Positions 22,575 to 43,202 of a stretch of 64,000 bases of DNA are shown in pieces. Within the stretch, counting starts at the first letter, position 1; every line of letters begins with the position of its first letter. The stretch comes from an uncultured Candidatus Saccharibacteria bacterium. Lineage in GTDB: Bacteria > Patescibacteriota > WWE3 > UBA101185 > UBA10185. The notes under the pieces were generated by a model. It worked only from the letters and a program-made list of their open reading frames with translations. It made no database searches and was not told the origin of the DNA. Position numbers and translations under genes: made by a program. The stretch is taken from NCBI GenBank assembly GCA_964643995.1, contig CAZXUJ010000001.1, positions 337,492 through 401,491 of the forward strand, given 5' to 3'.

Positions 22575-22895
22575 CTTACTCTTAGCAGACCCACCTACTT
22601 GGCGTGTAAAATCCAATAATGGTTATACAAGACAAAAAACCCGAAAGGTAATAAACCTACGCCAAAAAGCAAAAGCAGGTAGGGCAGTAGTGAAAGACAC
22701 AATTTGCAGATATATATTCTTGAACATAAAACTCGGAGTTGATGAAGTGCTGTCGTACCAGTTAAAAGAGCCATTTGATACATTACTGAAAAGTAAAGAT
22801 ATACATTCTGGTCGAGCAGTACGGTCATGGAATTTTATATTCTCTAGGCTAGAAATGAGACAAAGGAGACAGTATAAAAAAGGGAGTGTTTTTTT

Positions 22896-23480
22896 TTATC
22901 TTGTAGCATTATTGTGCTCCTGTATTACTTCAAGGAATTTTGTTCCCTCTATTATTAGTACGTTTTTAAAGTTTCCTTCTAGCTTTCCGACCTGCTTAAG
23001 ATAATTAAAGTACCTCTTTAACCTATAGAATAGTTGGTATTTGTCCCCTCCGATTGGTAGCACTATTCCTATCTTTCCCATTACAGATGCATTTAATATA
23101 TCGCCAAAAGCACGTTTTGAATCTTTAGTGTTTTCTATTTCTATTGCAATAAAACACCTCGGATTTTTATTTAGGACACTCATAAAATCTTGAAAGCTCA
23201 TGTACTCATGTCCCTCAGCAACATGCGAAACACTATATAATTTTTCTAACAGATCTTTATGAATTTCGACCATTCTCTCAAATTTGTTGTTATTTACTGC
23301 AAGATTTTTGTCTATATTGAAAGGACCTAATGCAATATCCACCCTTGGTGCATAATAATCCCTACTATTAAAGTCATCTAAGCTGTTTTTTGCAGCATTC
23401 CATTCTTTCACAACACTATCCGGTGCATGTATTTTTTTGAGCTCTCCAAGTATTTTATCTGTGTATTCCTTTGTTTTCAT
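22896..23480 (-). CDS. Hypothetical protein with PD-(D/E)xK-like motif, last gene of the defence operon
   Basis: Start is 7 nt downstream of the helicase stop and in the same orientation. RVDIALGPF ... CFIAIEIENTK resembles the D...ExK nuclease core; this is an inference. Confidence 0.45.
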   Translation of the reverse strand: MKTKEYTDKILGELKKIHAPDSVVKEWNAAKNSLDDFNSRDYYAPRVDIALGPFNIDKNLAVNNNKFERMVEIHKDLLEKLYSVSHVAEGHEYMSFQDFMSVLNKNPRCFIAIEIENTKDSKRAFGDILNASVMGKIGIVLPIGGDKYQLFYRLKRYFNYLKQVGKLEGNFKNVLIIEGTKFLEVIQEHNNATR

Positions 23481-23487
23481 AAAACGT

Positions 23488-26034
23488 TTATCTTATTAGA
23501 AGCTTCGAAATTTCCATATATGCAATACTGTCTGGATCGATACTTTCTACTATAGATTTTATATTGATACTTATCTGTTGGTTTTCATCTAAGGATATTA
23601 GGTCGAAAAAATTTTTAAAAATATATTGCGCAGTATATCTAGATAATCCTAAATCCTGCAAAGCAATAATAAACATATTTGTGGTTCCATACTCTATATA
23701 TTTTGCCCAATTAGGACCTGCTTTGTCTTCACCAACAATGTAAGACAATGTTTGATGATAATGGTTGAAGTATTTTTCTAGCGTAAATCTAAGAATGTCT
23801 TCTATGTCGTTAAGAACACCAATTATTATACTGTTTATGTGTTGTTCGTTATTTTTGTCGAATACCCCTACTGGTTGGCCATATTCGTACATGGTTTTTT
23901 CGTTTTCAGAATACCATTTTATTGTGTTTAGAATAATTCTGTTTATGTTTGCTCCTCCTATCCATTGGTTCATTAGTGCCCCGTAGTAGGTTAATTTGTT
24001 ACTATTATCAAAGTTTTTTTCGATATGTTCCAATTGGTATAAGTCATTAAGGTACTTAAGTACATTCATACAAATTGGGTAGTTGATACTTGTTTCTGGA
24101 AGCGTTACAGGGTTACTCTTTATTGTAGTATAAACTTTGTTTTGTATATCAACATCTATCCACTCGTTTGCGCCCAAAATAGTGTATGGTACAACAATAT
24201 CTTTAACCTTTTCTTCTGCGATAGTCAGTATTTTAGATGAGTTATATGTTTTGATTTTATTGAGGGTGTAACTACTTGTTTCTCTCTTAGTTCCTATGGT
24301 GTCTACGCATATTATGTTGCTTATATACTTAATCTGTTCTTTTTCAGATTGCGTGCCGGATATTGGATTACCCTCAAGAACTTTAGTTAGCTTTATTCTA
24401 TTCCTTTCGAGTTTATCAGTTATAGTAGGTTCAACGTTTATATCTTTGGAGGGTGGTTTTTCTAATGATGTATCTTTTTCATTTTGTATGTAGAAAACAT
24501 TACCAATTAATTCTATATTGGTTCTACCAGCTCTTCCAGACAGATTCCAGAAATCTAGTTCATCCAGTTTAGCCAGGCCTTTTTTATTAGATAGAATGAA
24601 AAGATTAGTTGTTGGCAAATTTATACCTTCAAGTAATGTTGACGTAGTGAACATGTACCTAATTTCATTTTGTTTGTATAAATCTTCTATTATTAATCTA
24701 ATCTCTTGAGGTAGTTTTCCATAATGGAAGGCTATACCTAAAGACAAGAATTTTGCTAAGTAATAATCTTTATGAATATATCCTTTTATCTTATCTATTG
24801 CAGATTTTAGTTTTGGACTTGGTTCTACTTTTTCTACACGGCTAACGTACTCCGCCAGTTTCTTTGCATTTTCAACAACAGAGGCTACGGAATGACAGTA
24901 AACTAAACTATTTGAATATTGTCCTATTTTATGTACTAGTTCAATATAGTTGGTTGCAAAGTCATTCAGATTGTCACTAATGCACCTAAACTCCCCCTGC
25001 ATATTTTGATATATTATGTTTTCTTTGAAGTTGATTTTAAAGACATACTGCGAAACCGTGTTTTCATCAATACTAAAAGACTTGCCTTTGTTTTTTGAAA
25101 ATAATTCTAAATAGACATCTGGGTTTTTTACAAAAGGTGATGCAAAGTATAGATTTATTGCTGGAAATCTGTTTATAGCTTTTTCAATTGCTCTAAATGT
25201 AACTATACTCCGCACATCGTTCTTTGTTGTGATCTTATGTGCTTCGTCAACAAAAAGAAAACCCAATGGGGGGTTATTTTCTTTGTTAGCTAAATACCTA
25301 ATTAATCTCTCAGGAGTTAGTACGAGTAACAGATTTGAGTCTTCCTGAGTATTTATGATGGAACTTACACTTACCTTATAATTGAAGCGTTTTAATTCTT
25401 CTCCTAGTGAGGCATTTATATCTTCAACGTACTGATTTATTAGAGCTTTTGTAGGTACCAATGCCACTATGTTTTCTTTAGGTGCATTATGTAACACATG
25501 CCGTATAAAGTTCTTGATTAAAAAAGATTTACCAATTGATGTTGGACCAGAAAAACTAAACATCTTATTGGTAGTTAGCATGTTGTAAATTTTTAACTGA
25601 GTATCTGTAAAATATAAAGATTCTGTGTTAGGTACTGTATTACGAAGTTTCTTATAAGTTTCGTAAATCTCTCTTTCAAGTGGTACTTTTGTGTAATTAT
25701 CTTTTTCTCTTCCTAGTACATTTTTTGCAGGGAAGTTACCTAAGTTCGTAAATGTATTATATATACTTGTATTATGAAATGGATCATTTGAGAGCCTATT
25801 AACAGTAGCGACAATATTTAGCGCAATGTTCCTAAATTGGGATTCTTGAGTTAGAGATAATATATAGGCGCATCTCAACAGAAAGTCAAAATCTAGTTCC
25901 AAGTCACTCACTGATAGTTTTTCCAACTCAAACAGCTTCGAACTATATAGTAATTGCATTTGTTCATAGGCGTTTGTAAATTGCTCACTATTAACAAGCT
26001 CATTGGCCAATTTTTCTGCAACAGTCTTACTCAT
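23488..26034 (-). CDS. SF2 DEAH-box helicase, HamB-like (Hachiman helicase component)
   Basis: Motif I FSGPTSIGKS, motif II LGFLFVDEAHKI, motif VI NLSGRAGRTN, and a C-terminal extension of about 330 aa. Start codon overlaps the stop of the upstream 306-aa gene. Confidence 0.65.
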   Translation of the reverse strand: MSKTVAEKLANELVNSEQFTNAYEQMQLLYSSKLFELEKLSVSDLELDFDFLLRCAYILSLTQESQFRNIALNIVATVNRLSNDPFHNTSIYNTFTNLGNFPAKNVLGREKDNYTKVPLEREIYETYKKLRNTVPNTESLYFTDTQLKIYNMLTTNKMFSFSGPTSIGKSFLIKNFIRHVLHNAPKENIVALVPTKALINQYVEDINASLGEELKRFNYKVSVSSIINTQEDSNLLLVLTPERLIRYLANKENNPPLGFLFVDEAHKITTKNDVRSIVTFRAIEKAINRFPAINLYFASPFVKNPDVYLELFSKNKGKSFSIDENTVSQYVFKINFKENIIYQNMQGEFRCISDNLNDFATNYIELVHKIGQYSNSLVYCHSVASVVENAKKLAEYVSRVEKVEPSPKLKSAIDKIKGYIHKDYYLAKFLSLGIAFHYGKLPQEIRLIIEDLYKQNEIRYMFTTSTLLEGINLPTTNLFILSNKKGLAKLDELDFWNLSGRAGRTNIELIGNVFYIQNEKDTSLEKPPSKDINVEPTITDKLERNRIKLTKVLEGNPISGTQSEKEQIKYISNIICVDTIGTKRETSSYTLNKIKTYNSSKILTIAEEKVKDIVVPYTILGANEWIDVDIQNKVYTTIKSNPVTLPETSINYPICMNVLKYLNDLYQLEHIEKNFDNSNKLTYYGALMNQWIGGANINRIILNTIKWYSENEKTMYEYGQPVGVFDKNNEQHINSIIIGVLNDIEDILRFTLEKYFNHYHQTLSYIVGEDKAGPNWAKYIEYGTTNMFIIALQDLGLSRYTAQYIFKNFFDLISLDENQQISINIKSIVESIDPDSIAYMEISKLLIR

Positions 26035-26954
26035 TACTTAATTTTCCTTATTAATTCTTTTCTTGTATTAGAAATATCCGATAAAGGAATTATGTACAAA
26101 TAAACATTATGAAAGTTTAGCTCTTTATCCTCTAATGCCTTTGCTATAGTTTCTTTTTTTGACAATACTTCATTTTTAATCTGTTCTCTAAGTGCTACAG
26201 TAAATTCCATAGTTCCTTTGGCTTGCATCTCCTCGTCAAAATCTACATTAAACCCTAGTAAAATGCCGAATGCATCATCTGTTGGTATGTTATCTTTTGA
26301 TAATGCGGGAAAGAGTATTCGTTTAACTATTTTGTATTCATTTTCGCTAAGGCACTCTTTTATAAGGTTGGCATTTATTAGCCCTCGTTCATATGAAATT
26401 TTTCCCTCGGACTTTAACAGTTTTATAGACTTTACAGCCTCACTAATTCCACTTACTAGAGACTTGTGCACTTTTGATTCTCCGTAGATAAGCTGGTATT
26501 CCTCCTCCGATATTTTTAATAGATGAATACCATCAGAGCCTTTTACATAATCATTACCGGCTGTTTTTAATTCTAATTTAGAGATAATTTTAGGCGCCTC
26601 TAAATGACTTTCTAAAAAGCAATATAGGAGTAATTCTCCTAGTTCCCCATCATTAGATGCAGCTTTTCGCAGCTTTTCCTTTGCTCTATCATTTAGTTCC
26701 CCAAACCTTCCCTCTTTTACAAAGTTTTCAATTTCTTTTCTAGAAAGTGCATAATTGATCAGATTATTTGATAGCTCTGGTATCAAGGTGTCGTAGTCGA
26801 ATCTACTATTTCTTGTTTTCAAGATAAATAGGTCCAGTTTCTTATTGTCAGTAAGTTGGATCCCTTGTAATTCATGATAAAACAAGTTTAAGAACTCTTT
26901 ACTTGACCGGATCGACTTATTTATAGGATTTGTACCCATAGTTGCATTATACAT
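26034..26954 (-). CDS. HamA-like protein (putative DUF1837-type effector with D...ExK motif)
   Basis: 306 aa, immediately upstream of and translationally coupled to the helicase, in the classic Hachiman two-gene architecture. GSDGIHLL ... IYGESKVHK gives a D141 / E159-x-K161 PD-(D/E)xK-like arrangement. The domain call is an inference. Confidence 0.45.
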   Translation of the reverse strand: MYNATMGTNPINKSIRSSKEFLNLFYHELQGIQLTDNKKLDLFILKTRNSRFDYDTLIPELSNNLINYALSRKEIENFVKEGRFGELNDRAKEKLRKAASNDGELGELLLYCFLESHLEAPKIISKLELKTAGNDYVKGSDGIHLLKISEEEYQLIYGESKVHKSLVSGISEAVKSIKLLKSEGKISYERGLINANLIKECLSENEYKIVKRILFPALSKDNIPTDDAFGILLGFNVDFDEEMQAKGTMEFTVALREQIKNEVLSKKETIAKALEDKELNFHNVYLYIIPLSDISNTRKELIRKIK

Positions 26955-26988: not shown

Positions 26989-28107
26989 CTACTGTGCTTT
27001 TATAAGCATAGTTAGTTTCTCTTCTGTTTCATAACATCTTAATCTGCCACTCAAATATCCAACCCTATAACTAATACCATCGCTCATTAATCTCCAATTT
27101 GTATCCTCAAGGGTTTTGTTCAGAAGTTTTTTAAGCTGTTGTTTGCTGTCATATTCTTCTCTGTCTGATTTTTCATCTTGGGTAATAAAAGGTACAACAG
27201 CGTATTTACCTAATTCTGGCTTCTCAAATTGAAGTTCAATATAGCCTTCTTTTTCCAATGCCTCTTTAACAAGCTTGTTAAGCTCCACGACTTTTAGTTT
27301 TTTAAGGCTCATGGCTTTTTTATAAGCTGGATCTTCCTTCTTTTCTTTGTCTTTTTTTATATCGCTCATAAGATTAGAGAGATTTTCTGACCATAGTACA
27401 GCTTCATTACCTTCCTTTTCATTAAAACAAAATTCTTTTCTAAACTTTTTAAGTAATTCTTTATCTTTTGCTTCCTCTTTTTCCCGTTCTTCTCTCCATT
27501 TTTTATGATCATCAACTTTAACCTCTTTGTAATCGCAACCTGTGCATTTATGTGTCCAAGTAGTTTTATCTTTGTTATCGTCAATCTTTATTGAAACATC
27601 TATCTCAGAGCCACATTTTTCACATAATGTTGGGTTGCTTTCCCAAACTTCTCCATCATCATAATAGGCTTCTCTTTTGTGACATCTTGGGCATTCATAC
27701 ATAAACAAGACTCTAAAATTACTATCTAAACCTCTTTCCCAAGAGTCTTTGCTTATAACATCAAGCAAAACGTCACAGTCTTTGCAGTAGTATTCTCCTG
27801 AATCTGCATTATCATAAGTTTCTTGTTTTGTTCTATCTTTCTCCATCCATTCATTTATTGTTTTTTTCTTGCTTTTAAATCTTGTAACTTTAATTGAATA
27901 CAAGGTCATGTTTATTAAGCGTAACCAGTCATTTTTACGTTTTTCTTCAGAAATATTTTCTTTGTTTGGTAATTTCATTGCTTCGGGTAGCTTTTTGTAA
28001 AGGGCTTGGTAGTAGTCGAGGCATTCTTTGATTGTTACAAGGTCATGGAGATCGATATAGTATTGTTCTGGTTTGATAAATGTTTCAGATTCTAGTTTTT
28101 TTGCCAT
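26989..28107 (-). CDS. Double zinc-ribbon (4x CxxC) protein with Lys/Glu-rich coiled coil, unknown function
   Basis: CKDC, CPRC, CEKCG and CTGC pairs at residues about 108-190 form two C4 ribbons, followed by a KE-rich helix and a C-terminal domain. Start lies 2 nt after the hsdR stop. Confidence 0.5.
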   Translation of the reverse strand: MAKKLESETFIKPEQYYIDLHDLVTIKECLDYYQALYKKLPEAMKLPNKENISEEKRKNDWLRLINMTLYSIKVTRFKSKKKTINEWMEKDRTKQETYDNADSGEYYCKDCDVLLDVISKDSWERGLDSNFRVLFMYECPRCHKREAYYDDGEVWESNPTLCEKCGSEIDVSIKIDDNKDKTTWTHKCTGCDYKEVKVDDHKKWREEREKEEAKDKELLKKFRKEFCFNEKEGNEAVLWSENLSNLMSDIKKDKEKKEDPAYKKAMSLKKLKVVELNKLVKEALEKEGYIELQFEKPELGKYAVVPFITQDEKSDREEYDSKQQLKKLLNKTLEDTNWRLMSDGISYRVGYLSGRLRCYETEEKLTMLIKAQ

Positions 28108-28109
28108 AC

Positions 28110-31100
28110 TTAAGCATTTGCAAAACTAAATTGTGCATTTGCTCTAATCCCTGAAAGTACCCCAAAGATTAAATCTCTTTCTGCGGGCCCAAATACTCCG
28201 TCTATTCCTCGGTCGTCAATAAAGGTGAATGGCTGATCGTATAGGTCACCTGGCTTAACAATTCCAGTAGCAACGATATGATCTATGACTTTATCTAAAA
28301 ACTGCATTTGAGCCGCATTTAGATTATGTTTTTGCATAAACTCACTAAAGGCTGCTTTTGCTATGTCTCTATCCAGTCCAACAAGACTTCGTATAAATTC
28401 TCCAACTGTTTGTCCTTTGAGTGCATTCTCGAACTCAGTTTTATCGATATCATAGTTACTGCTGATTAATAGTGCTTCAATTTCCTGTATATCCATCTGA
28501 TCTAGTTTTTCATTATTCTTAATTTTCTGTATTGCAGATACAAACTCATTTTCTCTAATGATGGATTGCACCCTTTTCAAATAGTTGTCCCTGTTAGGTG
28601 CGTCTTTAACTACCCCACTTGAAGTGACGGTTGAACCATAAATAGTATCCGTAAAGTTTGTGTAGACTGCCTTTCTGTCTGGTGGATCAAGAAGTTTGAT
28701 TAAATCTCGTAAATCCCTACGTATCTCTTCTAGATCTTCGGTAGTTGGATTAGACCAAAAAGCCTCTTCTTTGATTTTGTTTATAGTAGCAATCTTTTCA
28801 GCAACTGCAGGAATATTGGCTTTCTCAAATAGTAGATCTGCTAATGTCATTACTCTTTTCTTGCTATTAGTAAGATTCTTAGATTCTTTAAGTGATTCAA
28901 CTTGCAGATTTAACATGAGGGAATCAAATCTTCTAGCAAATTCATCGTCATCTACGACAAGATTTGAAAATGGAGCAATGTGTTCATTAACATCCAACAC
29001 ATCTTGTTTACTTAGATTTTCCCAACGATCACGACTACTAAATTCATCAATATATCGTTTGTGTTTGCGTAGACTAAAACTCATCGGAGCCATCTGAGTT
29101 ACATCTTCATGTAGGATATTTAACAAGCTAAGTCTAAAGTCTTGCAAAGGTTGATTTTCGCTATACTTTCCTCCTTGTAGTTCATGCGCCAACTCAACTC
29201 GTCTTTCAAAAATCAATTGTGACAGTGGTTTCTGAGTTGAGCCTTTAATCCCCTCAGGATTGACTTTAAAGAATTCAAAATTTCCACAGAAATCAAAAAT
29301 CAAAAATTCTTTCTTATCGCCTTCTGGGCTATCCGGGCCAAACAGTTTTGGACATAAGCGAGTACCACGTCCTATCATTTGCCAGAATTTTGCTTTGGAA
29401 CGAGTAATTTTGAAAAAGACCAAGTTAACAATTTCAGGAATATCTATACCGGTATCAAGCATGTCTACCGAAACAGCAATAAAAGGGCTATCTGGTTTAT
29501 TTTGCTTAAATTCGTCAATTAAGGTATGAGAATAGTCGGCATAGTTATCGATCACTCTTAGTGCTCTGCCACTATAATGTGGGTAATTTTTGTTAAATCT
29601 CTCCTGAATAAACATGGCATGTTCGTGTCTTTTTGCAAAGATGATGGTTTTACCCAACCTATCACCACCTTCAACTTTTATTCCATTTTCCATTAAGTGC
29701 GCTAAAACCTGATCAACAGTATTTGTGTTGAATACCCAATCATTAAATTGAGATGGCGCAATCATCAATGGTAGTTGTCCGTCATCATCCTCAAAGGTCA
29801 TTTCATACATTTCTTTCTCTTCCTCGCTCAATTCGTCATATGTTAGACCTTCTGTTAAAAATTTGAGGGGTACATCAATCTGTTTTGGAGGTACTAAAAA
29901 CTTATCTTCAACTGCCTGATCTAGTTCATATGAATAAGTTGGGTTGTGGTCTTCTAGTCCAAATAATTCATAAGTGTTGTGATCAACCTCAGCTTTTGGA
30001 GTAGCAGTCAAGCCAATAAGTAGTGAATCAAAGTAATCAAAGATAGCACCATATTTCTGATATACACTCCTGTGTGCCTCATCAATGATAATCAAGTCAA
30101 ATCTACCAATACCAAATCTCTTTACTCCATCCTTCTTTGATTCATCAATCATATTCATCATAGTCGGATATGTGGAGAAAACGATGCGAGAAGTTGTATC
30201 TTCCTTTTCTTTGGTGATATCGATTGTAGTGGCTTCAGGATACAAATCATTAAAAGCCTCCTTAGCTTGAGTTAATAGAGCGTTTCTGTCTGCTAAGAAT
30301 AATACGTTTTTAATCCAGCCTTGCTTCATCAGTAACTCCACTAGAGCAATTGAAACTCTAGTTTTACCCGTTCCCGTTGCCATGACTATCAATGATCTTC
30401 TTTCTTTATGTTCTAGTTGTTCCAATACACTTTGGATTGCTAGTTTTTGGTAATACCTTCCAGCAACTTCATCATTGACCTGTGCTTCCAACAAACTCTT
30501 GCGAGTTTTGCGACGATTGATCATTGTTTGAAGCTGATCCTTAGTGTAAAAACCTTGAATAGGTCGCGGCGGATACATATCATCTTCCCAAATCCAATGA
30601 TCATATCCATTGGTATAGAAGATTACTGGCCTTTGCCCGTGTTTCTTTTCCAAGGCGTTTGCATACAGTTCTGCTTGCCTTTGTCCTTTTTGAGCATCAT
30701 GAGTTGTCCGTTTAGCTTCTACCAAACCTACTGGTAAACCATCATCTCCCCATAAAACATAGTCTACGTACCCAATACCTTTGTTGTTGGGCATACCCTC
30801 CACTTCGTATTCAGCTACATTTTCACCTTGTGGATCCCAGCCAGCCTCTTTTAGTAACAAGTCTATAAATAATTCTCTAGTTTCAGCCTCAGAATAGTCT
30901 TTTTGACTAACTTGTTTCTTATTCTTTTCCTTAGTGACTTGTATTTGTGTACGAAGTTCTTTAAGTTCCTCTTCATATTCAACTAACAGTAACTTCTGTT
31001 GTTCAAATTCTTTACCTTGTGAATCGAGCTTATCTTGCAATTGTTGTAGTTCTTCAGCATTTTTATCAGCCTCTCCTTCACGAGGAATAAAGGATTCTGA

Positions 31101-31502
31101 ATATTGCGGCAATTCTGGTTGCTCTTCACTGTATTGCATAGCCATCCATTCGCAGAAGTTGTAGAGATTTCTCAGAGAAGCTAGCGATTCTTTTTCACTA
31201 ATTGGTTTTCGGCTATGAACAGCTTGATTGCCAATTTTGCGGATGTAGTTGATCAAGTGAAAAAGGTTATATGGCAATAATCTTTTGAAACTTGGTTCAT
31301 GCATTAGGGCAGCCAAGTGTGTTTCGTAAGGTTGCTGCAAATCAGAGTCGTGTAAATACAACCAGTTGATGATCAGCTCTACAGTGCGTCGCGCGTAAAA
31401 CACCGAAGTGCGTGGTGCAGTAAACGTATGCTGTTCTGTTTGTAAAGCCTCTTCATAAATCTGCGGCCAGTTATTTTCTAAAAATGTAAAGTTTGATTTC
31501 AT
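28110..31502 (-). CDS. hsdR: Type I restriction enzyme R subunit
   Basis: N-terminal FLENNWPQIYEEALQTE-type domain, PD-(D/E)xK nuclease motif GYVDYVLWGDDGLPVGLVEAKRT, helicase motif I MATGTGKT, DEAH box IIIDEAHRS, and HsdR C-terminal domain; 1130 aa. Confidence 0.85.
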   Translation of the reverse strand: MKSNFTFLENNWPQIYEEALQTEQHTFTAPRTSVFYARRTVELIINWLYLHDSDLQQPYETHLAALMHEPSFKRLLPYNLFHLINYIRKIGNQAVHSRKPISEKESLASLRNLYNFCEWMAMQYSEEQPELPQYSESFIPREGEADKNAEELQQLQDKLDSQGKEFEQQKLLLVEYEEELKELRTQIQVTKEKNKKQVSQKDYSEAETRELFIDLLLKEAGWDPQGENVAEYEVEGMPNNKGIGYVDYVLWGDDGLPVGLVEAKRTTHDAQKGQRQAELYANALEKKHGQRPVIFYTNGYDHWIWEDDMYPPRPIQGFYTKDQLQTMINRRKTRKSLLEAQVNDEVAGRYYQKLAIQSVLEQLEHKERRSLIVMATGTGKTRVSIALVELLMKQGWIKNVLFLADRNALLTQAKEAFNDLYPEATTIDITKEKEDTTSRIVFSTYPTMMNMIDESKKDGVKRFGIGRFDLIIIDEAHRSVYQKYGAIFDYFDSLLIGLTATPKAEVDHNTYELFGLEDHNPTYSYELDQAVEDKFLVPPKQIDVPLKFLTEGLTYDELSEEEKEMYEMTFEDDDGQLPLMIAPSQFNDWVFNTNTVDQVLAHLMENGIKVEGGDRLGKTIIFAKRHEHAMFIQERFNKNYPHYSGRALRVIDNYADYSHTLIDEFKQNKPDSPFIAVSVDMLDTGIDIPEIVNLVFFKITRSKAKFWQMIGRGTRLCPKLFGPDSPEGDKKEFLIFDFCGNFEFFKVNPEGIKGSTQKPLSQLIFERRVELAHELQGGKYSENQPLQDFRLSLLNILHEDVTQMAPMSFSLRKHKRYIDEFSSRDRWENLSKQDVLDVNEHIAPFSNLVVDDDEFARRFDSLMLNLQVESLKESKNLTNSKKRVMTLADLLFEKANIPAVAEKIATINKIKEEAFWSNPTTEDLEEIRRDLRDLIKLLDPPDRKAVYTNFTDTIYGSTVTSSGVVKDAPNRDNYLKRVQSIIRENEFVSAIQKIKNNEKLDQMDIQEIEALLISSNYDIDKTEFENALKGQTVGEFIRSLVGLDRDIAKAAFSEFMQKHNLNAAQMQFLDKVIDHIVATGIVKPGDLYDQPFTFIDDRGIDGVFGPAERDLIFGVLSGIRANAQFSFANA

Positions 31503-32152
31503 AAACTAAATGATTCCACTAATGCAAATAAATTTTTAATAGCAGGATTTTCCGAAAAATAAAAACGATTATCCTCAAGATTCTTTCTGAGAAAGAATTG
31601 ATAATCTACCTCATTCTCTGTAGATATTGTCATCACAAAATCTAGATAGGGATATTTTAACTTAATTTCTTCATCAATCTCATAAGAATCAAGATTTTCA
31701 TCATATCGAAAACCAAATCTTTCTAATAAATTATTCCTATCAACATCTAAGTGATAGGCAAATACTCCAAATAACGGGATATTATCTTTATCCAAGTTTT
31801 TGATAATTTCAGCATCTTCATTTGCCTTTTTAAGATGTTGATTGGTAAGCCTACTTTTTATTTCCAACACTAGTTTGCAATAACGCACATGCATAACAAC
31901 ATTTCTGCTATTCGGTGGATCCAAGGGAGCACTAATTGAACAAAAAATGCTGTCGCATTGGGGACTGTGGGAGTCGTTGTCATTAAATAGTTCACCACTC
32001 TTAACAACTATATTTTTGTGTCGATTTAAAATTAAATCTTTCAAAAAGTCTTCCCTAACTGTTCCTAGGGTTGGTTTATGGATAAACTCACTAGAAACTT
32101 CATATTGAGCTAGAAGAAGTTTTTGATAATACTCAAAAACTGCATTAGACAT
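31499..32152 (-). CDS. Hypothetical protein inserted between hsdS and hsdR (possible D...ExK nuclease-like)
   Basis: 217-aa ORF overlapping hsdS by 8 nt at its start and overlapping hsdR's start (ATGA). QCDSIF ... CKLVLEIKSR gives a D...ExK-like pattern; this is an inference. Confidence 0.45.
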   Translation of the reverse strand: MSNAVFEYYQKLLLAQYEVSSEFIHKPTLGTVREDFLKDLILNRHKNIVVKSGELFNDNDSHSPQCDSIFCSISAPLDPPNSRNVVMHVRYCKLVLEIKSRLTNQHLKKANEDAEIIKNLDKDNIPLFGVFAYHLDVDRNNLLERFGFRYDENLDSYEIDEEIKLKYPYLDFVMTISTENEVDYQFFLRKNLEDNRFYFSENPAIKNLFALVESFSL

Positions 32153-34840: not shown

Positions 34841-35054
34841 TATTAGTTAGCGGTTGCACCCCCTCTTGTCAAGTAGGGGTTGGTTTGACAACTAAAAACA
34901 AGTGTTGTACTTTATAATTATTGAGAGTTGAATAGTAAAAAAATACCTACCTCTTACTTCATAGTAAGCAGGTTATGCTCGATATGTATGGGGCCGAGCG
35001 TTAGGAAGTAATCACTTCGATTATTTTCTGGCGTTCGGCCCTTTTTTTGTTTGT

Positions 35055-36374
35055 ATGAAAGAAGAATTAAAAATAATAAAAGTTAATATTAAGGACTTAA
35101 AAGTTGCAGATTATAACCCTCGAAAGTGGGATAAAACAAAAACTCAAAATTTAAAAGAAAGTATTGGAAAATTTGGGCTAGTTGATCCCTTGATTGTTAA
35201 TTCTGCACCAAGTAGAAATAATGTTGTAATTGGTGGCCATTTTCGCTTACAAGTTGTCAAAGAACTTGGCTATGCAGATGTACCAATTGTCTATTTAAAT
35301 ATTCCAGATATTGAAAAAGAAAAGGAATTGAATGTAAGGCTTAATAAGAATACAGGTGATTGGGATTACAAGTTGTTAGCCGAGTTTGACTCCTCCTTAC
35401 TAGATATTGTTGGTTTTAACAGTGAGGAGCTAGACGATATCTTTGGTTTAGACGAAACCCCAGAAGAGTTTAATCTGCAAAAAGAGTTAGAAAAATTAAA
35501 CATTCAAGAAATTTCTACAGTAGATGGTGATATCTATCAATTGGGTGAACATCGCCTAATGTGTGGTAATTCAACAATAGAAGATGATGTCCTAAAACTC
35601 ATGGACGGCGAAAAAGCGGATATGTGTTTTACAGACCCTCCATATATTCTCGACTATTTGAAAGGTAAAAAGAAAAGCGATAAGGGTTTTGGACTAAAGA
35701 AAAATAGAAGGTATTTAGGTACAGATTCATTGCCTGATGATTTCACTGAATTATGGATGTCAAACATCTCAAAAGTACAAAAGGATGACTTCTCAATCAT
35801 TGTTTTTGAGAATTGGAAAAACATAAGAACTATCTGGGATGCAATGGAAGATTACTGGAAAGTTAAAAACATGATTGTTTGGCATGTTCCAAATAGGACA
35901 CAGGGGTTTTCTGGAAAATACAGATTTTTCTCAAAGCATGATATTGCAATGGTTGGTGCGTCTCCAAATTCTGATATTCCTTTTAATCTAGAAGAAGAAA
36001 TTGAGGGTCTACAAAATGAGTATGAAACGGCACTATATGCAATTTCTGGTAAACCTCATTGGGAAAGTTATAAAAAGGGTAAAAAATACCAACCAACAGA
36101 TTATATTGATCATCCTGTAGATGATGCCAAACATTCAGGACAAGGTATCGTATTTGGTACGAAACCAATAGAAATATTAATTCCCTATATAAAAGTTTTA
36201 ACTAAAAGAAATGATTTAATAATTGAGCCTTTTGGTGGTAGTGGCTCTACTCTTATTGCCTCTACAAAGATGAAAAGAAGATGCTATGTGATGGAAAAAT
36301 CCCCCGTTTATGTAGAAATAATAAAACATAGATGGGAAAAATTGACTGGGCAGAAAGGGGTAAAAATACAATGA
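35055..36374 (+). CDS. ParB-like nuclease domain fused to DNA methyltransferase (phage-type orphan N6A/N4C MTase)
   Basis: N-terminal ParB/Srx fold (KVADYNPRKW..., GGHFRLQVVKELG). C-terminal MTase motifs DPPY (MCFTDPPY) and FGGSGST (IIEPFGGSGSTLIAS). Confidence 0.8.
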   Translation: MKEELKIIKVNIKDLKVADYNPRKWDKTKTQNLKESIGKFGLVDPLIVNSAPSRNNVVIGGHFRLQVVKELGYADVPIVYLNIPDIEKEKELNVRLNKNTGDWDYKLLAEFDSSLLDIVGFNSEELDDIFGLDETPEEFNLQKELEKLNIQEISTVDGDIYQLGEHRLMCGNSTIEDDVLKLMDGEKADMCFTDPPYILDYLKGKKKSDKGFGLKKNRRYLGTDSLPDDFTELWMSNISKVQKDDFSIIVFENWKNIRTIWDAMEDYWKVKNMIVWHVPNRTQGFSGKYRFFSKHDIAMVGASPNSDIPFNLEEEIEGLQNEYETALYAISGKPHWESYKKGKKYQPTDYIDHPVDDAKHSGQGIVFGTKPIEILIPYIKVLTKRNDLIIEPFGGSGSTLIASTKMKRRCYVMEKSPVYVEIIKHRWEKLTGQKGVKIQ

Positions 36375-36778
36375 GCAAATTAATTCAAAAAAGGCAAAAG
36401 CAAGAAAAAGAAGCATTAATAGAACAATTGAAGAAAACCCCAATAATACAAATGGCGTGCAAAAATGCAGGTGTTGGGAGAGCAACATACTATCGCTGGA
36501 GAAACCAAGATTACAAATTCGCACAAAAAGCAGATGAAGCATTAGAAATGAGTGTAAGTCTTATGAATGATTTAGCTGAGTCCCAGCTTATATCAGCAAT
36601 TAGAGACAAAAACATGACTGCAATAATCTTTTGGTTAAAACATAGGCATCAAGGTTATTCCACAAAAGTACTACTTTCTGGCTCCCTTGAGACCTCTATA
36701 AAGCTTTCTCCTGAACAACAGAAAGTATTTAAAAAAGCCGTACATTTAGTTTTTGGTGAGAATTCAGATGTCGAATAA
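36371..36778 (+). CDS. terS: Phage terminase small subunit (HTH-containing)
   Basis: HTH GVGRATYYRWRN and the IIFWLKHRH motif typical of small terminases. ATGA overlap with the upstream MTase; followed directly by terL. Confidence 0.6.
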   Translation: MSKLIQKRQKQEKEALIEQLKKTPIIQMACKNAGVGRATYYRWRNQDYKFAQKADEALEMSVSLMNDLAESQLISAIRDKNMTAIIFWLKHRHQGYSTKVLLSGSLETSIKLSPEQQKVFKKAVHLVFGENSDVE

Positions 36779-38324
36779 TACACGAAAAAAAGACTTAGAT
36801 ATTGTTTACGAAAGAATCCTAAGCGATAAAGCTTTTAGAATTAAGACTACTTCTGAGATGCACAAGTGGTTTTTTGTTACCTATTTTAGTGAATATGCAA
36901 AGTACAAGATTGCCCCTTTCCAAGAAGAAATGTTCAGATTAAGTGAATTGGATGATACTCCTCTAGTTGTTATCGAAGCGTTCAGGGGTTGTGGAAAGAC
37001 AACTATATTAGTTCTTTCGTACATCTTGTGGGCTGTTTTAGGTAGTCAGGGGAAAAAACACATCTTGATTGCTAGTCAAAGCTTAGATAAAGCAATGAGT
37101 ACCTTAAGAGATATAAAGACCATTCTTGAGACTAATAAATTGCTTATAGATGATTATGGGCCCTTTAGAATTCCTCCTGAACCTTGGAAAGAAAAATCGC
37201 TACACCTACCAAAGTATGATGCAAAAATAGTTCCTATTTCAGTGGAAGTAAGTCCAAGAGGCTATATACACAAAAGCAAAAGACCTGACTTAATAATTAT
37301 TGATGACCTCGAAAGTATAAATACCATAAATTCAGTTGAAATGAGAGATAAAGCGTTTAAATGGTACATGGAAGAAGTTGTTCCTAGTGGTGATGTGGAT
37401 ACAAAGATTGTAATAACAGGTAACTTTTTACATTCTGATTCTTTAATAAAACGCCTGCAAGTAATGATTGATAATGATGAGCTTGACGGCATTTATAGGC
37501 GGTATCCTTTTTATGATTCAGATAATAAACCTTTGTGGTTTAGTAAATTTCCTACATCTAAAGAAATCACCGCTTTAAAGAAAAAGGTTGGAAAAGATTC
37601 TTGGCTAAGAGAGTATCTGTTGGAGGATATTCCAGTCGGAACTAGCCCAATAACTAAAAACCTAATCAAGTATTACTCTGATTTACCTACTCAAAACATT
37701 GCCAAACAAATAAAACTACAGTATGTGGGTACGGGAGTTGACCTCGCTATATCCAAACAATCTACTGCACACTACACAGCTATGGTGTCCGTAAAGGTAT
37801 TTTATGTAGGTAACAAAGTTAATGTCTATATCCTTCCAAATCCTATAAACGCTAGATTAACTTTCCCAGAAGCATTCGATACTGTAAAAAGAGTTTCCAA
37901 AGCATTAGATCCAAATGGGGATGCAACCCCAATAATAGTTGAGACCATAGCTTATCAGGAGGCAATGGAACAGGCTCTAGTGCAGGAAACATTTCCTGTT
38001 AAAGGAATAAAACACAATTCGCTAGATAAAATGGCAAGATTAAGTTTAGTTGCAAATTTTATGGCAGACCATAATATCAATTTTCCAACGTCTGGTTCTG
38101 AATTGCTTATTTCTCAACTTTTAGGTTTTGGTAGTGAAAGATACGACGATCTTGCTGATGCTTTCACAATGATCATGACTGAAGTAATGGAAAGATGTAG
38201 TTTTAGACCATACAACTGGGATTACAAACCAAAGCCAGCACCCCCTTCTAAAAGTTTATTTAGTGACTTACATAGAGATATGTCTGATCCTGTAACAAAA
38301 GGACTAATAGACATGAAATTCTAA
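36753..38324 (+). CDS. terL: Phage terminase large subunit (ATPase + nuclease)
   Basis: Walker A-like FRGCGKTTIL, Walker B LIIIDDLE, and a C-terminal RNaseH-like nuclease region (GVDLAIS...DLADAF). Sits downstream of terS. Confidence 0.75.
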   Translation: MVRIQMSNNTRKKDLDIVYERILSDKAFRIKTTSEMHKWFFVTYFSEYAKYKIAPFQEEMFRLSELDDTPLVVIEAFRGCGKTTILVLSYILWAVLGSQGKKHILIASQSLDKAMSTLRDIKTILETNKLLIDDYGPFRIPPEPWKEKSLHLPKYDAKIVPISVEVSPRGYIHKSKRPDLIIIDDLESINTINSVEMRDKAFKWYMEEVVPSGDVDTKIVITGNFLHSDSLIKRLQVMIDNDELDGIYRRYPFYDSDNKPLWFSKFPTSKEITALKKKVGKDSWLREYLLEDIPVGTSPITKNLIKYYSDLPTQNIAKQIKLQYVGTGVDLAISKQSTAHYTAMVSVKVFYVGNKVNVYILPNPINARLTFPEAFDTVKRVSKALDPNGDATPIIVETIAYQEAMEQALVQETFPVKGIKHNSLDKMARLSLVANFMADHNINFPTSGSELLISQLLGFGSERYDDLADAFTMIMTEVMERCSFRPYNWDYKPKPAPPSKSLFSDLHRDMSDPVTKGLIDMKF

Positions 38325-38446
38325 CCTTTTGAGGTATAATTGCCTTAGAAAATTAAACAGCCGCGAAGAAAATCCACTATTTTGTGGTGCATGAAACCTT
38401 AAAAGGGGCTACTCTTCAGGGTTTCATGCTTCGCGGCTGTTACTAC

Positions 38447-38464
38447 AAGGGTAGTCCCTTTTTT
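38447..38464 (+). terminator. Intrinsic terminator downstream of terL and of a large hairpin
   Basis: AAGGG-tagt-CCCTT stem-loop followed by TTTTTT. Confidence 0.45.
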
Positions 38465-38555
38465 ATGTACAGTTGCAAAAATAACTACAATTTAAAAACT
38501 TGCCTATATTTAAGTGGTCTGTCATCAATCATCTTGAAAAATAAATTTATATTGT

Positions 38556-39302
38556 ATGGAGGTGATTAATACGGAAAATAATGAAAACAAACCAAAAAAG
38601 AAAAGTAAGTTAACAATGTTGGGTTATATAATCGGTGGATTATTCATATTTGGAGGTGTCAGTTTCATCTTTTCAAAAGAGACTGGACCGCTGGTTGGTT
38701 TAGGGTACTTAGCTTCGGGTTTAGTTGTATTTCCTCCGTTTTGGGAGTTTATGAAAAAGAAATACGATTTTGTATTATCTAGACCACTAAAAATTATGGC
38801 ATTTTTAGTTCTTATGGGAATTACAGGAGGTTTACTGGTGCAGAGAGCTGATAAATATCAAGAACCTAAACCTACTGTAGAAAAGATTACCAACGTTACG
38901 TCGCCTACAGTAAAAAAGGAAGTTAAAACTACGCCCAAAATTGTTGAAGAAAAACCCAAAGTAGAGCCTTTGGATATAGCTATTACAAGCCAGATCGTTA
39001 AAAAAGTAGATGGAAAATGCAGATACTTTTTTGATGTAAGGAACACTGATGTAAATGAATTTGAAGGTTCTGTAGAAATTGCACTTATGAACTCATCCGG
39101 AAGTACTTTAGGCAGAGAAACTTTCAACACCAATAAACCTATCCAACCATCTTTAGGTTCAACTGTTTATTTTGATATAAACACTTGTCCAGGGGGAGAA
39201 TTAGGAATATCAGATTATTCATACAAGGTTATGGTTGGGAAAGATATAGTAGCTGAGGGTAAGAAAAGTATTACTTCTAAGTATGAGAACTTGAGTTATT
39301 GA
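38556..39302 (+). CDS. Hypothetical membrane-anchored protein
   Basis: Two N-terminal hydrophobic helices, then a Lys/Pro/Val-rich linker (KKEVKTTPKIVEEKPKVEP) and a beta-rich C-terminal domain. Confidence 0.4.
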   Translation: MEVINTENNENKPKKKSKLTMLGYIIGGLFIFGGVSFIFSKETGPLVGLGYLASGLVVFPPFWEFMKKKYDFVLSRPLKIMAFLVLMGITGGLLVQRADKYQEPKPTVEKITNVTSPTVKKEVKTTPKIVEEKPKVEPLDIAITSQIVKKVDGKCRYFFDVRNTDVNEFEGSVEIALMNSSGSTLGRETFNTNKPIQPSLGSTVYFDINTCPGGELGISDYSYKVMVGKDIVAEGKKSITSKYENLSY

Positions 39303-40114
39303 CCATCTTGGAAGAACCTCTCTGGAGGTTCTTCCACTTGGTTGTTGTCAATTTTTGATAATGCATTTGAGAAGTCGGTTTCAACTTGTTTAAGTATTTG
39401 TTTCAAATCCTCTTTCACATTTCGTCTGAATTCATTTTGACCTTTTAGCCAAAAATGCTGTGTTGTATTGAAATCATAAAAAATTAACTCACTTGTTTCC
39501 CACATCATCAATAACATAAAGTTTGCTAATGATAGGTTTGCTAACGTTCTATATGAAAGTTTCTCTGTATACCCGCCACCTACAATTAGGGTGCCTTCAT
39601 GCATATTGTAATGTGTTCCGATAACTTGCCTTGATGGGTGCGTAACTTTACTCAAAATTCCATACATAGTGCCTGCATCTTTAATTACTGTTTTTAGATA
39701 ACGTATACAATCGTTGCCGCTAACTTTATTTTTTTTATATTTTTCAAATATTGTTTCATCAGCATGAAATGCGAATGCCAAAGCAAGACTTTCAAACGCA
39801 GACCGCATTAGATATTGAGGTTCTAGCACATATCCCTGCTTACTTAATTGAATGGCGCCAATCATGGTGTTACAGGCTTGCCAAATTATCGCTTGTGATT
39901 CAAACAACTCATCAGATACCTTTTCCTGTTCTGTGTTTACAATGATATCTAAGATTTTGTATATATGCGTGAGGATGAAGACATTGTGTGCTAATTGAAC
40001 TTTAAACTTTTTGTTGACTTCCTTTTGAGCATTTTCCGAGTACTCATACATAACTTTAGTTATTAATTCTGCATAATGTCTTAGCTTAGGATCGTTGTGT
40101 ATTTTATCGGTCAT
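39296..40114 (-). CDS. Hypothetical protein
   Basis: 272-aa ORF in the phage-like module; no family recognised. Confidence 0.4.
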   Translation of the reverse strand: MTDKIHNDPKLRHYAELITKVMYEYSENAQKEVNKKFKVQLAHNVFILTHIYKILDIIVNTEQEKVSDELFESQAIIWQACNTMIGAIQLSKQGYVLEPQYLMRSAFESLALAFAFHADETIFEKYKKNKVSGNDCIRYLKTVIKDAGTMYGILSKVTHPSRQVIGTHYNMHEGTLIVGGGYTEKLSYRTLANLSLANFMLLMMWETSELIFYDFNTTQHFWLKGQNEFRRNVKEDLKQILKQVETDFSNALSKIDNNQVEEPPERFFQDGQ

Positions 40115-40196
40115 AGTGCAATTATACTTGGGAAAAGGAAATGCAGGTGAAGTTGTTTTTTCTCAAGAGTTCGTATTTCCAATAGACATTTAGTTT

Positions 40197-40703
40197 TTAT
40201 TGCAATATTTTTGTCATATCTTCTAATAGTGTTTGGCAAAGTTTTTTATTCTCATCTTGTTGCTCTTTTGTAAGAATGTATTGTTCTTTTGTTTGAAAAT
40301 CCATGAGAGCAATAGTTTCGTTATTTGCCTTAAAATACACAGGGTTTAAAACAAACAGTGAATGTTTTACTAAATTTAAAATTTTATTGAACTTCTCTAA
40401 ATCACTAATGATTCTTAGATGCTCTTCTGTGGTAATACCTACCAATTGTAAGTCTATAGATTTAAACTTAGTAAGGTGTTTCCCTAACATGCCTGAGTTT
40501 ACGGGCTGTTCAAACATTTCCAACACTTGCGATAAACTTAGTATAAGGCTATTTCCTAAGGACAATATTGCTCCCATATACATCCATACTCTTTGTATAT
40601 ATTGATCCGCAATTGTTGGTCCATCAGTTGTTTTTTGTATATATATCATCTTCAACGATTTTAGCATTTTAAGTTGCCGTGTTATTAAAAGTATGTCATC
40701 CAT
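40197..40703 (-). CDS. Hypothetical protein
   Basis: 168-aa ORF diverging from the recombinase gene; no family recognised. Confidence 0.35.
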   Translation of the reverse strand: MDDILLITRQLKMLKSLKMIYIQKTTDGPTIADQYIQRVWMYMGAILSLGNSLILSLSQVLEMFEQPVNSGMLGKHLTKFKSIDLQLVGITTEEHLRIISDLEKFNKILNLVKHSLFVLNPVYFKANNETIALMDFQTKEQYILTKEQQDENKKLCQTLLEDMTKILQ

Positions 40704-40710
40704 TGTGTAG

Positions 40711-42006
40711 ATGACTAAAGCAAAAGAAGAATTAAAATACTGTCTTTATGCTCGCAAAAGTTCGGAATCAGATGAACGGCAAGCACGTTCAATAGAATCT
40801 CAAATTAATGAAATGCAGGAACAAGCAAAGAAAGAAGGATTGAATATCGTAGAAGTTAAAAAAGAGTCGCACAGTGCAAAGATATCGGGGACACGACCTG
40901 TATTCTTGGAGATACTTAAAGAAATTAATTTAGAAAAATACAATGGGATTTTAGCTTGGTCACCAGACCGATTGAGTAGAAATGCAGGAGACTTAGGAAG
41001 TTTAGTAGATTTGATGGATAGAAAGAAACTTGTTCATATTAAAACTTATTCTCAATCTTTTACCAACAACCCAAACGAAAAGTTTTTACTTATGATTTTA
41101 TGTTCCCAAGCAAAGCTAGAGAATGACAACAGATCGCTACATGTTCAAAGAGGTATTAGAAACAAATGTGAAATGGGTTGGAGACCTTGCCCTGCACCTA
41201 TTGGCTATATTAATTACTCCCATGAAGGCACTAAAAAAGTGATGCTTGATAAAGAAGCAGCTCCCTATGTAAAGGAACTGTTTGAACTTGTAGCCCATGC
41301 AAACTATAGCGGAAGAGATTTAAGAGAACATCTAAAACAAGATAAAAATCTCCGACGACTAACTAACAAGAAAATATCTTTAAGTATGATTTATACAATA
41401 TTGAAAACGCCTTTTTATTACGGTGAATTCGAATATCCACAAGGAAGTGGGAAATGGTACAAAGGTGCTCACGAACCCATAATTGAAAAGTGGCTATTTG
41501 ATAAAGTGCAAAGGAAATTAGTCACTTCAAAAAAATCGAAATGGGGTTCAACTTTCTTTTTATTTAAGCATGTATTCAAGTGTGCTTATTGTGGAGCAAA
41601 CTTTGTTGGTGAAGAAAAACATAAAATGCTCAAAGGTGGAAAGAAAAGGACATATACATATTATCGCTGTTCCAGGCAAGTGGATCCGAACTGTGAGGAA
41701 CCGTATGTAAATGAAAATGAATTAATTGGTGAGTTAATCAATTATGTGGGATTGATAGAAAATAAGAGAGACTCAAACCTACATCTAAACAGTAAAATCA
41801 GAGGCAGAATGGATAAATTTACCAAGTTAAGAATGTCTTTACTTGAAGGAAAGAATATAAAAGTCCACGAAAAAGTAACATTTACGGAGTATTTCAAATA
41901 CATTATTTATAATGGAACTAAAGAAGAAAAACAGGAAGCAATTGAAACACTGAAACTACCGTTATTCATTCACAATAAGACTGTTTACACACATCCGTTA
42001 GGATAA
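40711..42006 (+). CDS. Large serine recombinase (resolvase/invertase catalytic domain + recombinase domain + zinc ribbon)
   Basis: N-terminal YARKSSESDERQARSIESQ with a catalytic Ser context and ...SPDRLSRN. A C-terminal Cys cluster (CAYCG ... CSRQVDPNC) forms a zinc-ribbon-like element. 431 aa. Confidence 0.8.
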   Translation: MTKAKEELKYCLYARKSSESDERQARSIESQINEMQEQAKKEGLNIVEVKKESHSAKISGTRPVFLEILKEINLEKYNGILAWSPDRLSRNAGDLGSLVDLMDRKKLVHIKTYSQSFTNNPNEKFLLMILCSQAKLENDNRSLHVQRGIRNKCEMGWRPCPAPIGYINYSHEGTKKVMLDKEAAPYVKELFELVAHANYSGRDLREHLKQDKNLRRLTNKKISLSMIYTILKTPFYYGEFEYPQGSGKWYKGAHEPIIEKWLFDKVQRKLVTSKKSKWGSTFFLFKHVFKCAYCGANFVGEEKHKMLKGGKKRTYTYYRCSRQVDPNCEEPYVNENELIGELINYVGLIENKRDSNLHLNSKIRGRMDKFTKLRMSLLEGKNIKVHEKVTFTEYFKYIIYNGTKEEKQEAIETLKLPLFIHNKTVYTHPLG

Positions 42007-43004: not shown

Positions 43005-43125
43005 ATGTTGTTGTAAACTAAACCAAATCAAGCAAAACAGCGGTTCGTGAGTTAAAAAATCAATAGGGGTTTTATCAAACCATTAACGGGTAATTTAAGC
43101 ATCATGGTCACAATGATGCCCATTC

Positions 43126-43202
43126 TGGTCGGGGTGACAGGACTCGAACCTGCGACCTCACGCACCCCATGCGTGCGCGCTAGCCAACTGCGCCACACCC
43201 CG
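43126..43202 (-). tRNA. tRNA-Pro (anticodon GGG)
   Basis: Minus-strand cloverleaf: acceptor CGGGGUG/CACCCCG, D-stem GCGC/GCGC, anticodon stem CACGC/GCGUG with loop AUGGGGU, T-loop UUCGAGU, discriminator A, and encoded CCA. Confidence 0.85.

Follow-up and report, generated by a model that had tools for sequence, protein, structure and literature searches.

A conserved double zinc-ribbon protein family from defence-rich neighbourhoods of Patescibacteria and DPANN archaea

The DNA considered here, hereafter the window, is a stretch of 64,000 nucleotides (nt) from an uncultured Candidatus Saccharibacteria bacterium (contig CAZXUJ010000001.1), which harbours on its minus strand a gene (26989..28107) for a protein of 372 amino acids (aa) with two zinc ribbons. 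This protein and its homologs, together referred to as the 372-aa family, are the products of real genes that share a conserved domain layout, a restricted taxonomic range and an island context rich in defence genes, in which they have no fixed partner and are present only optionally. The gene is thus described best as an optional mobile module, being neither a core gene of the island nor a subunit of one particular system. It is possible, and is tentatively preferred here, that it encodes an autonomous, non-enzymatic, nucleic-acid-binding protein which serves as a defence-related sensor, blocker or regulator in defence islands, with the nucleic-acid binding, any role in defence and the autonomy of action all being putative. 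The family is without a known relative; most plausibly it belongs to a known kind of gene, namely defence cargo that is borne by mobile elements and assembled from nucleic-acid-binding modules.

Architecture, relatives and range of the family

The open reading frame (ORF) noticed in the first-pass annotation, where its strand was not given, is a real gene of the minus strand with an ATG start and a stop codon at 26989-26991; the plus-strand frame at 26989-28107 is riddled with stops and offers no coding reading. An AlphaFold2 model built with an alignment of homologs (mean predicted local distance difference test score, pLDDT, 94.0; predicted template modelling score, pTM, 0.74) divides the product into four parts, all encoded on the minus strand. 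Residues 1-103 (27799..28107) form an N-terminal helical domain with helices 14-38, 54-78 and 80-100, as assigned by DSSP, and with the conserved motifs QYYIDxYDLxTIxEC and TIxEWMxxDR. Residues 104-200 (27508..27798) make up a beta-rich domain of six modelled strands, in which two C4 zinc ribbons stand in tandem, the first built from C108/C111 with C139/C142 and the second from C162/C165 with C188/C191. These are the four CxxC pairs on which the first-pass annotation had relied. Across 104 aligned homologs C111 and C162 are conserved to 90% or more, and the remaining six cysteines (C108, C139, C142, C165, C188, C191) do not vary at all; hence the CxxC pattern is not a product of chance. The ribbon domain is acidic and highly charged, with an isoelectric point (pI) of 4.6.

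The Lys/Glu-rich helix that had been noted next to the ribbons is in the model a helical hairpin (residues 201-270; 27298..27507) formed by helices 201-226 and 230-258, with 54% charged residues over positions ~201-267 (21 K+R and 17 D+E) and a conserved LLxKYRxEFC...KEG motif at the turn. The C-terminal globular domain, also anticipated, is modelled as an alpha/beta fold (residues 271-372, modelled over ~273-371; 26992..27297) and is the most conserved part of the protein, with a mean top-residue frequency of 0.66 versus 0.47-0.53 in the other domains. The stretch TNWRLMSDGISYRLGYLSGRLKxYE is near-invariant in this domain, the beta sheet of which carries conserved Asn, Arg, Tyr and Ser residues.

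The first-pass annotation recognised no named family and proposed remote-homology and Foldseek searches, none of which has since brought a family to light: nothing scored above threshold in Pfam, NCBIfam, PADLOC or PHROGs, and no structural match was obtained in PDB or BFVD. The best of the Pfam scores, all of them below the gathering cutoffs, was that of DZR (PF12773; 19.5 bits vs a cutoff of 27.3), followed by Zn_Ribbon_TF (PF08271; 17.7 vs 29), Zn_ribbon_IS1595 (PF12760; 14.6 vs 25.4) and HypA (PF01155; 13.3 vs 28.9). A scan of PADLOC-DB v2 (5027 models, those of HamC type included) returned 0 families at E<=0.1, and the whole protein drew no meaningful match from NCBIfam or PHROGs. In PDB and BFVD, Foldseek gave no match at E<=0.001 to the model with pLDDT 94, nor to the model of a longer form described below. 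Profile searches of PDB sequences with the N-terminal domain yielded no match at E<=10 and those with the C-terminal domain yielded nothing, and no description of the family was found in the literature.

The likenesses that could be detected below these thresholds concern the ribbons and the C-terminal domain. The ribbons weakly resemble those of the Rpb9/RPA12/TFIIS type: a profile of the family matched PDB sequences with E=0.0099, the only sequence-level PDB match of the family, with both ribbons aligned. The match is one of the whole pair, each ribbon alone giving E>1. The Foldseek matches of the ribbons are likewise weak (8hyj_I, E=0.017, probability 0.89; 4c2m_I, E=0.086). For the C-terminal domain, ribosomal protein eS24 and S6-like ferredoxin-type folds came out best (probability 0.96-0.99, E 0.01-0.1), with template modelling scores of 0.4-0.6 normalised to the 372-aa protein and an identity of 10-19%.

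The family is large and consists of intact proteins. A set of 5.8 billion proteins contained 467 homologs at E<=0.001, essentially all of them full length, and HMMER, run exhaustively against 1.84 billion representatives, gave 828 clusters at 50% identity; the 150 best listed of the latter search were all full-length members, none of them fused to a known domain, and no more remote relationship emerged among them. In GTDB (one genome per species, ~185,000 species genomes) 315 relatives were found, nearly all of them in Patescibacteria and a few in Woesearchaeota and Nanoarchaeota (DPANN) and in Omnitrophota. Many homolog records are titled "uncultured Gammaproteobacteria" and come from bins of ~1 Mb, these labels being presumably unreliable. 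Searches with tblastn found no homologs in 50,697 GenBank phages or in 72,556 plasmids of PLSDB, and IMG/VR contained only 6. The host of the window is likewise a member of the Patescibacteria: its valyl-tRNA synthetase (46744-49062) is closest to proteins of WWE3 and Woesebacteria.

This distribution bears on the suggestion that the protein is an ordinary housekeeping zinc-ribbon protein which stands here by chance. A few homologs are indeed labelled "HypA/HybF" or "Zn ribbon nucleic-acid-binding protein" by the pipelines of the Joint Genome Institute, but the HypA score cited above is far short of its cutoff and no known housekeeping zinc-ribbon family was matched. Moreover, the family occurs in only 315 of ~185,000 species genomes, sometimes twice per genome, and the genes on either side vary, many of them belonging to defence systems or mobile elements. 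Owing to the patchy distribution and the variable context, the housekeeping explanation is effectively refuted and retains a practically negligible probability. As for the genomes with two members, the copies reside in different islands in some genomes of ~1 Mb, as illustrated by loci L028 and L064 (contig CAZBEF010000001.1) and by L010 and L035 of another genome (L plus a number denotes a locus carrying a homolog).

A long form, encoded in 30 of 89 loci and hence by about one member in three, has a C-terminal extension of ~180 aa, which consists of an invariant CxxC...CxxC (a Cys4 knuckle) and a beta-alpha-alpha-beta-beta unit; the model of the long form reached a pLDDT of 89. Forms of ~550 aa are encoded in L021, L028, L029, L037, L046, L048 and other loci, and forms of ~697 aa (L013, L017, L044) contain in addition a P-loop kinase of the AAA_18/AAA_33 type (AAA_18, 1e-08). 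The extension found no match in a PDB profile search and nothing below E=0.02 in NCBIfam, its matches to the TraR family having E=0.024 and being confined to 2 of 20 members. In one locus a similar P-loop kinase is encoded by a separate downstream gene.

Gene neighbourhoods and the supposed link between hsdR and Hachiman

To describe the surroundings of the family, genes were called in 98 loci anchored on its members and all neighbours were clustered, the clustering counts referring to 89 loci; co-occurrence with HamA, HsdR and HsdM was counted over 91 non-redundant loci, the window being excluded. The directly flanking genes are unrelated between loci (mean column identity 7%), and there is no fixed partner, since no neighbour family is present in more than ~20% of loci. 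Found most often close by is a DUF2779/Cas4-like nuclease of ~500 aa (18 of 89 loci; 5 of the 20 clusters at 50% identity), located at -1 to -3 in all loci but one (e.g. L005, L007, L010, L058, L183, L184) and usually preceded by a restriction-modification (RM) system. Shedu comes next with 7 loci, and all other families are rarer.

The neighbourhoods are nevertheless overwhelmingly those of defence genes. PADLOC, applied to 124 near neighbours, recognised SduA, PbeA and PDC-S39 (four each), RmrA and Cas4-like proteins (three each), type I specificity subunits, type IIG enzymes and MADS genes. Further neighbours recognised are DUF4209, DUF5677, DUF559, DUF3800, reverse transcriptase, Cap4 nuclease, Mrr and type ISP RM proteins, as well as nSTAND3, KAP NTPase, SMODS/SAVED (parts of CBASS), trypsin-like proteases and UvrD and Pif1 helicases. 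A homolog may stand between a type ISP RM gene followed by a PDDEXK gene and a helicase gene (L089), after OLD-TOPRIM/UvrD (Gabija-like) and DUF2779 genes (L183), or, in L184, downstream of HsdMSR and DUF2779 genes, with other genes in between, and directly before Shedu. In 10 of 11 independent contexts annotated with Pfam, recognised defence genes are found no more than three genes away, as a raw count; in agreement with the neighbour scans, the homologs are therefore not scattered in non-defence contexts. A polarity is also apparent, for RM genes lie upstream of the homolog in all but one case, while defence genes of other kinds (Shedu, Hachiman, reverse transcriptase, DUF4209, DUF5677 and others) are mostly found downstream.

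In the window, the 372-aa gene is the fifth of eight genes in a minus-strand operon, which comprises a full type I system, a canonical hamAB pair and a final 194-aa ORF. The operon starts with hsdM (33320-34840; Pfam N6_Mtase, 1e-73) and hsdS (32145-33323; Methylase_S, 7e-24). A DUF6602/PD-DExK nuclease-like gene (31499-32152; Pfam DUF6602, 4e-10; PADLOC PD_DExK, 1.5e-13) is wedged between hsdS and hsdR and overlaps both. The hsdR gene for the type I restriction subunit (28110..31502; Pfam ResIII, HSDR_N and EcoEI_R_C; PADLOC REase_I, 6e-191) lies directly upstream of the 372-aa gene. On the other side follow hamA (26034-26954; PF08878, 4e-56; PADLOC HamA1, 6e-102), hamB (23488-26034; PADLOC HamB1, 1e-245) and, starting 8 nt after hamB, the 194-aa ORF (22896-23480), which was called as an ORF and has no match in Pfam, PADLOC, NCBIfam or PHROGs. 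Neither the DUF6602 gene nor the 194-aa ORF has a homolog in any of the 91 other loci. Scans for promoters and terminators of the operon performed no better than on shuffled sequence, and no conserved hairpin or terminator follows the genes of the family, their minimum free energy being equal to that of other gene ends (p=0.38).

The Pfam and PADLOC matches confirm the neighbours as they had been named, and the intervals are also those reported previously: 2 nt between the end of hsdR (28110) and the ATG at 28107, and 34 nt between the stop codon of the 372-aa gene and the ATG of hamA at 26954. This close packing within one operon led to the idea that the protein bridges hsdR and the Hachiman genes, being a dedicated accessory or third subunit of HamAB or of the type I enzyme that links the two, and it is in keeping with this idea that the closest relative of the window on a long contig, L088 (JAHZTJ010013248.1), also has its homolog (81% identical) next to a HamAB pair. 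However, L088 is the sole locus with HamA among the 91, and HsdR, present in 15, is always encoded upstream, at a distance of 1-8 genes, and in no case as the immediate same-strand neighbour. No consistent adjacency to hamAB or hsdR was thus found, and co-occurrence of the family with HamAB or HsdRMS does not go beyond chance-level frequencies. The protein itself contains no match to HamA (DUF1837 nuclease), HamB (SF2 helicase) or any other Hachiman protein in Pfam or PADLOC, and no HsdR, HsdM or HsdS domain in Pfam; furthermore, Hachiman has been published as a two-protein HamAB complex (PMC12278908, PMC11914072).

L088 itself argues against the idea. Its island backbone is closely related to that of the window (integrase 87%, ParB-methyltransferase 90% and large terminase subunit 72% identical), whereas identity falls to 41% for HamA and 34% for HamB. 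These two are located on the reverse side, the order being HamA-HamB-homolog, so that Hachiman lies upstream there and downstream in the window. The low identity and the opposite side imply that two Hachiman systems were acquired separately around a retained 372-aa gene, and the two sister islands indicate a rapid turnover of modules at both cargo slots. The Hachiman genes of the window are accordingly ordinary two-gene cargo, and a dedicated accessory role is very improbable. What remains of the earlier interpretation is an unnamed double zinc-ribbon family in defence neighbourhoods, for which a sensor or regulator is still a sensible conjecture; the bridge between hsdR and Hachiman has to be given up.

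The constant position relative to RM genes might be explained in another way, namely by a counter-defence or establishment factor, analogous to anti-restriction proteins, which blunts the restriction of the host or delays the island's own enzymes upon entry into a new cell. HsdM-like genes are encoded in 33 of the 91 loci, upstream of the homolog in all but one, the gene is carried by a mobile element, and the highly charged, acidic ribbon domain would suit such a function. On the other hand, about two thirds of the 91 loci have no RM gene within 10 kb, the sequenced phages and plasmids, where anti-restriction genes abound, contain no homologs, and there is no likeness to known anti-restriction families in Pfam or PHROGs. 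Such a factor therefore seems quite improbable.

The integrative island and the optional presence of the gene

The operon described above is only a part of a larger unit that escaped the first-pass annotation. Positions 22800-43130 of the window resemble one compact integrative island of ~20 kb, in which the eight-gene defence operon is the cargo and a divergently oriented, phage-derived backbone (35055..42006, plus strand; recognised with Pfam and PHROGs) is the other arm. The backbone begins with a gene for a protein with ParB_N and N6_N4 methyltransferase domains (ParB-MTase; 35055-36374; phrog_498, 1e-85), followed by genes for a helix-turn-helix (HTH) protein resembling the small terminase subunit, TerS (36332-36778; PHROGs terminase small subunit, 4e-08), and for the large terminase subunit, TerL (36753-38324; phrog_38, 3e-58). 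Four small genes without assigned function separate TerL from a large serine recombinase (40711-42006; Pfam), the integrase, all of these genes being on the plus strand. No portal or capsid genes were found in the island.

Just past the recombinase lies a tRNA-Pro gene (43126-43202), and the candidate ends of the island are marked by an 11-nt direct repeat, CATTCTGGTCG, one copy of which (22804-22814) is located just past the last cargo gene while the other (43121-43131) overlaps the 3' end of tRNA-Pro. The repeat is tentatively regarded as the core of the attachment (att) site and hence as the island boundary, an 11-mer alone being weak evidence. Two further repeats were observed. In one of them, a direct repeat of 21 nt (43191-43211 and 43238-43258; 95% identity), the 5' portion of tRNA-Pro occurs a second time at a distance of 47 nt, perhaps as a remnant of a different integration. 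The other, an inverted repeat of 47 nt whose stem measures 20 bp (34993-35039), occupies the divergent intergenic region between hsdM and the ParB-MTase gene and may function as an operator or terminator or in packaging.

Beyond the window, this backbone is present in over 30 species loci of the candidate phyla radiation (CPR) and also in metagenomes. No description of this type of island was found in the literature; it may be a satellite-like, terminase-bearing defence island. Other recurrent genes of such islands encode XRE/Cro-like HTH proteins (30 loci), LexA/S24-type repressors (18 loci) and phospholipase D (PLD)-like nucleases (8 loci). As an alternative, the 372-aa gene could belong to the island's own life cycle: it might regulate induction or helper sensing, assist replication or recombination, or mark the border of two cargo slots where defence modules replace one another.

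Several observations are in line with such a role. The backbone is found beside 372-aa homologs in 33 of 84 clusters at 90% identity and in 11 of 20 clusters at 50% identity, always upstream and on the opposite strand. In 31 loci the ParB-MTase gene lies upstream of the homolog in divergent orientation, with a median of 3.7 kb between the two, and in three loci the gap is just 243-434 nt, with nothing in between (L087) or with one ORF of 50-59 aa (L021, L079). Genes for repressors of the Cro-like XRE or LexA-like kind often precede the 372-aa gene in the rightward operon, the one-way position relative to RM genes holds with a single exception, and 81% identity has been kept in the sister island that carries a different Hachiman system.

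The presence of the gene, however, proved to be optional. In a metagenome scan anchored on ParB-MTase, 0 of 10 CPR-type islands (at least 58% identity and at least 4 kb of cargo side, with 10 kb in five of the ten) carried the 372-aa gene, hence the element does not need it; only two more distant ParB-MTase islands (L126, L129) did. Co-divergence is weak, the Mantel (Spearman) correlation being 0.26 (p=0.015) with ParB-MTase, 0.24 with TerL and -0.04 with the integrase. Homologs also reside in other settings, such as L183, where a conjugative-type element encodes Replic_Relax and a T4 coupling protein, L007, where the element has a Toprim primase, and L004, where housekeeping genes are adjacent. 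Taken together, the empty anchored islands, the weak co-divergence and the other settings identify the gene as an optional, mobile module, and a core island gene is ruled out by the first two. An island life-cycle function is consequently rather doubtful. A degenerate DNA-binding region of a serine integrase, a candidate in its own right, was rejected as well: hhalign gave a probability of 0.4% and 11 aligned columns against the island's integrase family, and integrases are absent from the Foldseek matches of the protein model.

Possible mode of action and comparison with known systems

The preferred interpretation, a stand-alone defence-related sensor, blocker or regulator, draws on both the architecture and the surroundings of the gene. 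Zinc ribbons, a charged hairpin and an eS24-like domain, combined with the lack of an enzymatic signature, point to a protein that binds nucleic acid or an enzyme acting on it. The gene would be co-transcribed with whatever cargo surrounds it; the Rpb9/TFIIS-like ribbons and the eS24-like domain may bind RNA, single-stranded DNA or an enzyme such as RNA polymerase, and the charged helical hairpin might be a spacer or an interaction arm. The protein would then work by itself, outside the Hachiman and type I complexes. In the long form, encountered in roughly one member of three, the output side would be extended by the Cys4 knuckle and the beta-alpha-alpha-beta-beta unit, with a P-loop kinase added in a few cases.

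A number of points weigh against this interpretation. The role in defence is suggested only by guilt by association, these genomes are densely packed with genes in any case, and the count of nearby defence genes is a raw one. The preservation of the 372-aa gene in the sister islands while HamAB was swapped fits a function in the island as well as one in defence. All likenesses of fold are weak (Foldseek E>0.01) and could be generic. Moreover, no enzymatic or effector domain is recognisable in the protein, so it is difficult to see how it would confer defence unaided, and the homologs are often placed in the middle or at the 3' end of an operon, which is unusual for a regulator of transcription.

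When all parts are combined, the protein would be a single-protein immune sensor or blocker of a new kind, present in ultra-small episymbiotic bacteria and archaea, devoid of an enzyme domain, clamping phage nucleic acid or polymerase by means of its Rpb9-like ribbons and eS24-like domain, and spread by an undescribed, terminase-bearing, capsid-less island that is perhaps a phage satellite; as a whole, this combined reading is unlikely. Across the preferred interpretation and its rivals, a small remainder of probability falls to none of them.

The more immediate value of the analysis is a negative one, in that the idea of a coupling between a restriction enzyme and Hachiman can be set aside. 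One must bear in mind that the defence systems of CPR bacteria and DPANN archaea are poorly charted because standard catalogues were built from cultured bacteria. The family has hundreds of diverged members, a confident model and, on a mobile island, a recurrent place between restriction systems and those of abortive-infection type, which makes it a well-defined candidate for a novel role in immunity or, alternatively, for an island accessory of a new kind. The island itself, with its serine integrase, TerL, TerS and ParB-methyltransferase and without a capsid, may be the larger finding.

Among known proteins, the subunits and cleavage factors of RNA polymerases, Rpb9, RPA12 and TFS/TFIIS, share with the 372-aa protein two consecutive C4 ribbons with long beta hairpins. 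The match is, however, a weak one over ~100 of 372 residues, with the order of the ribbons swapped in the alignment, and nothing in these proteins corresponds to the N-terminal helices, the hairpin or the C-terminal domain. In addition, a subunit of the Rpb9 type is not known from bacteria, whereas the host of the 372-aa gene is a bacterium. The RNA-binding folds of eS24 and S6 type, the best structural match of the C-terminal domain, resemble it in fold only, with no sequence-profile match.

DksA/TraR and Gre factors combine a zinc finger or globular domain with a coiled-coil hairpin that enters the secondary channel of RNA polymerase, and TraR-type proteins are encoded on mobile elements. 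The outline of the 372-aa protein, i.e. a zinc module, a long helical hairpin and a globular domain, may be considered analogous, yet no homology to these factors was detected with Pfam, NCBIfam or Foldseek. A different analogy might be drawn with BrxR/CapW, repressors with a WYL domain that recur beside many unrelated defence systems, since the 372-aa family likewise accompanies varied systems and not a single one. Unlike BrxR/CapW, its members have no winged HTH-WYL domain, are usually encoded in mid-operon or at the 3' end instead of at the 5' end or divergently, and are confined to CPR and DPANN genomes. With Hachiman and HsdRMS, the 372-aa gene of the window shares an operon but no domain.

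As regards the island, the variable regions of P2/P4-like prophages and satellites and of phage-inducible chromosomal islands (PICI) carry defence genes and are known as defence hotspots. The backbone described here, which joins TerS and TerL to a ParB-methyltransferase and a serine integrase and has no capsid genes, differs from those of P2, P4 and PICI; nonetheless, the island resembles them in being a compact, integrative, phage-derived element with a variable region loaded with defence genes.

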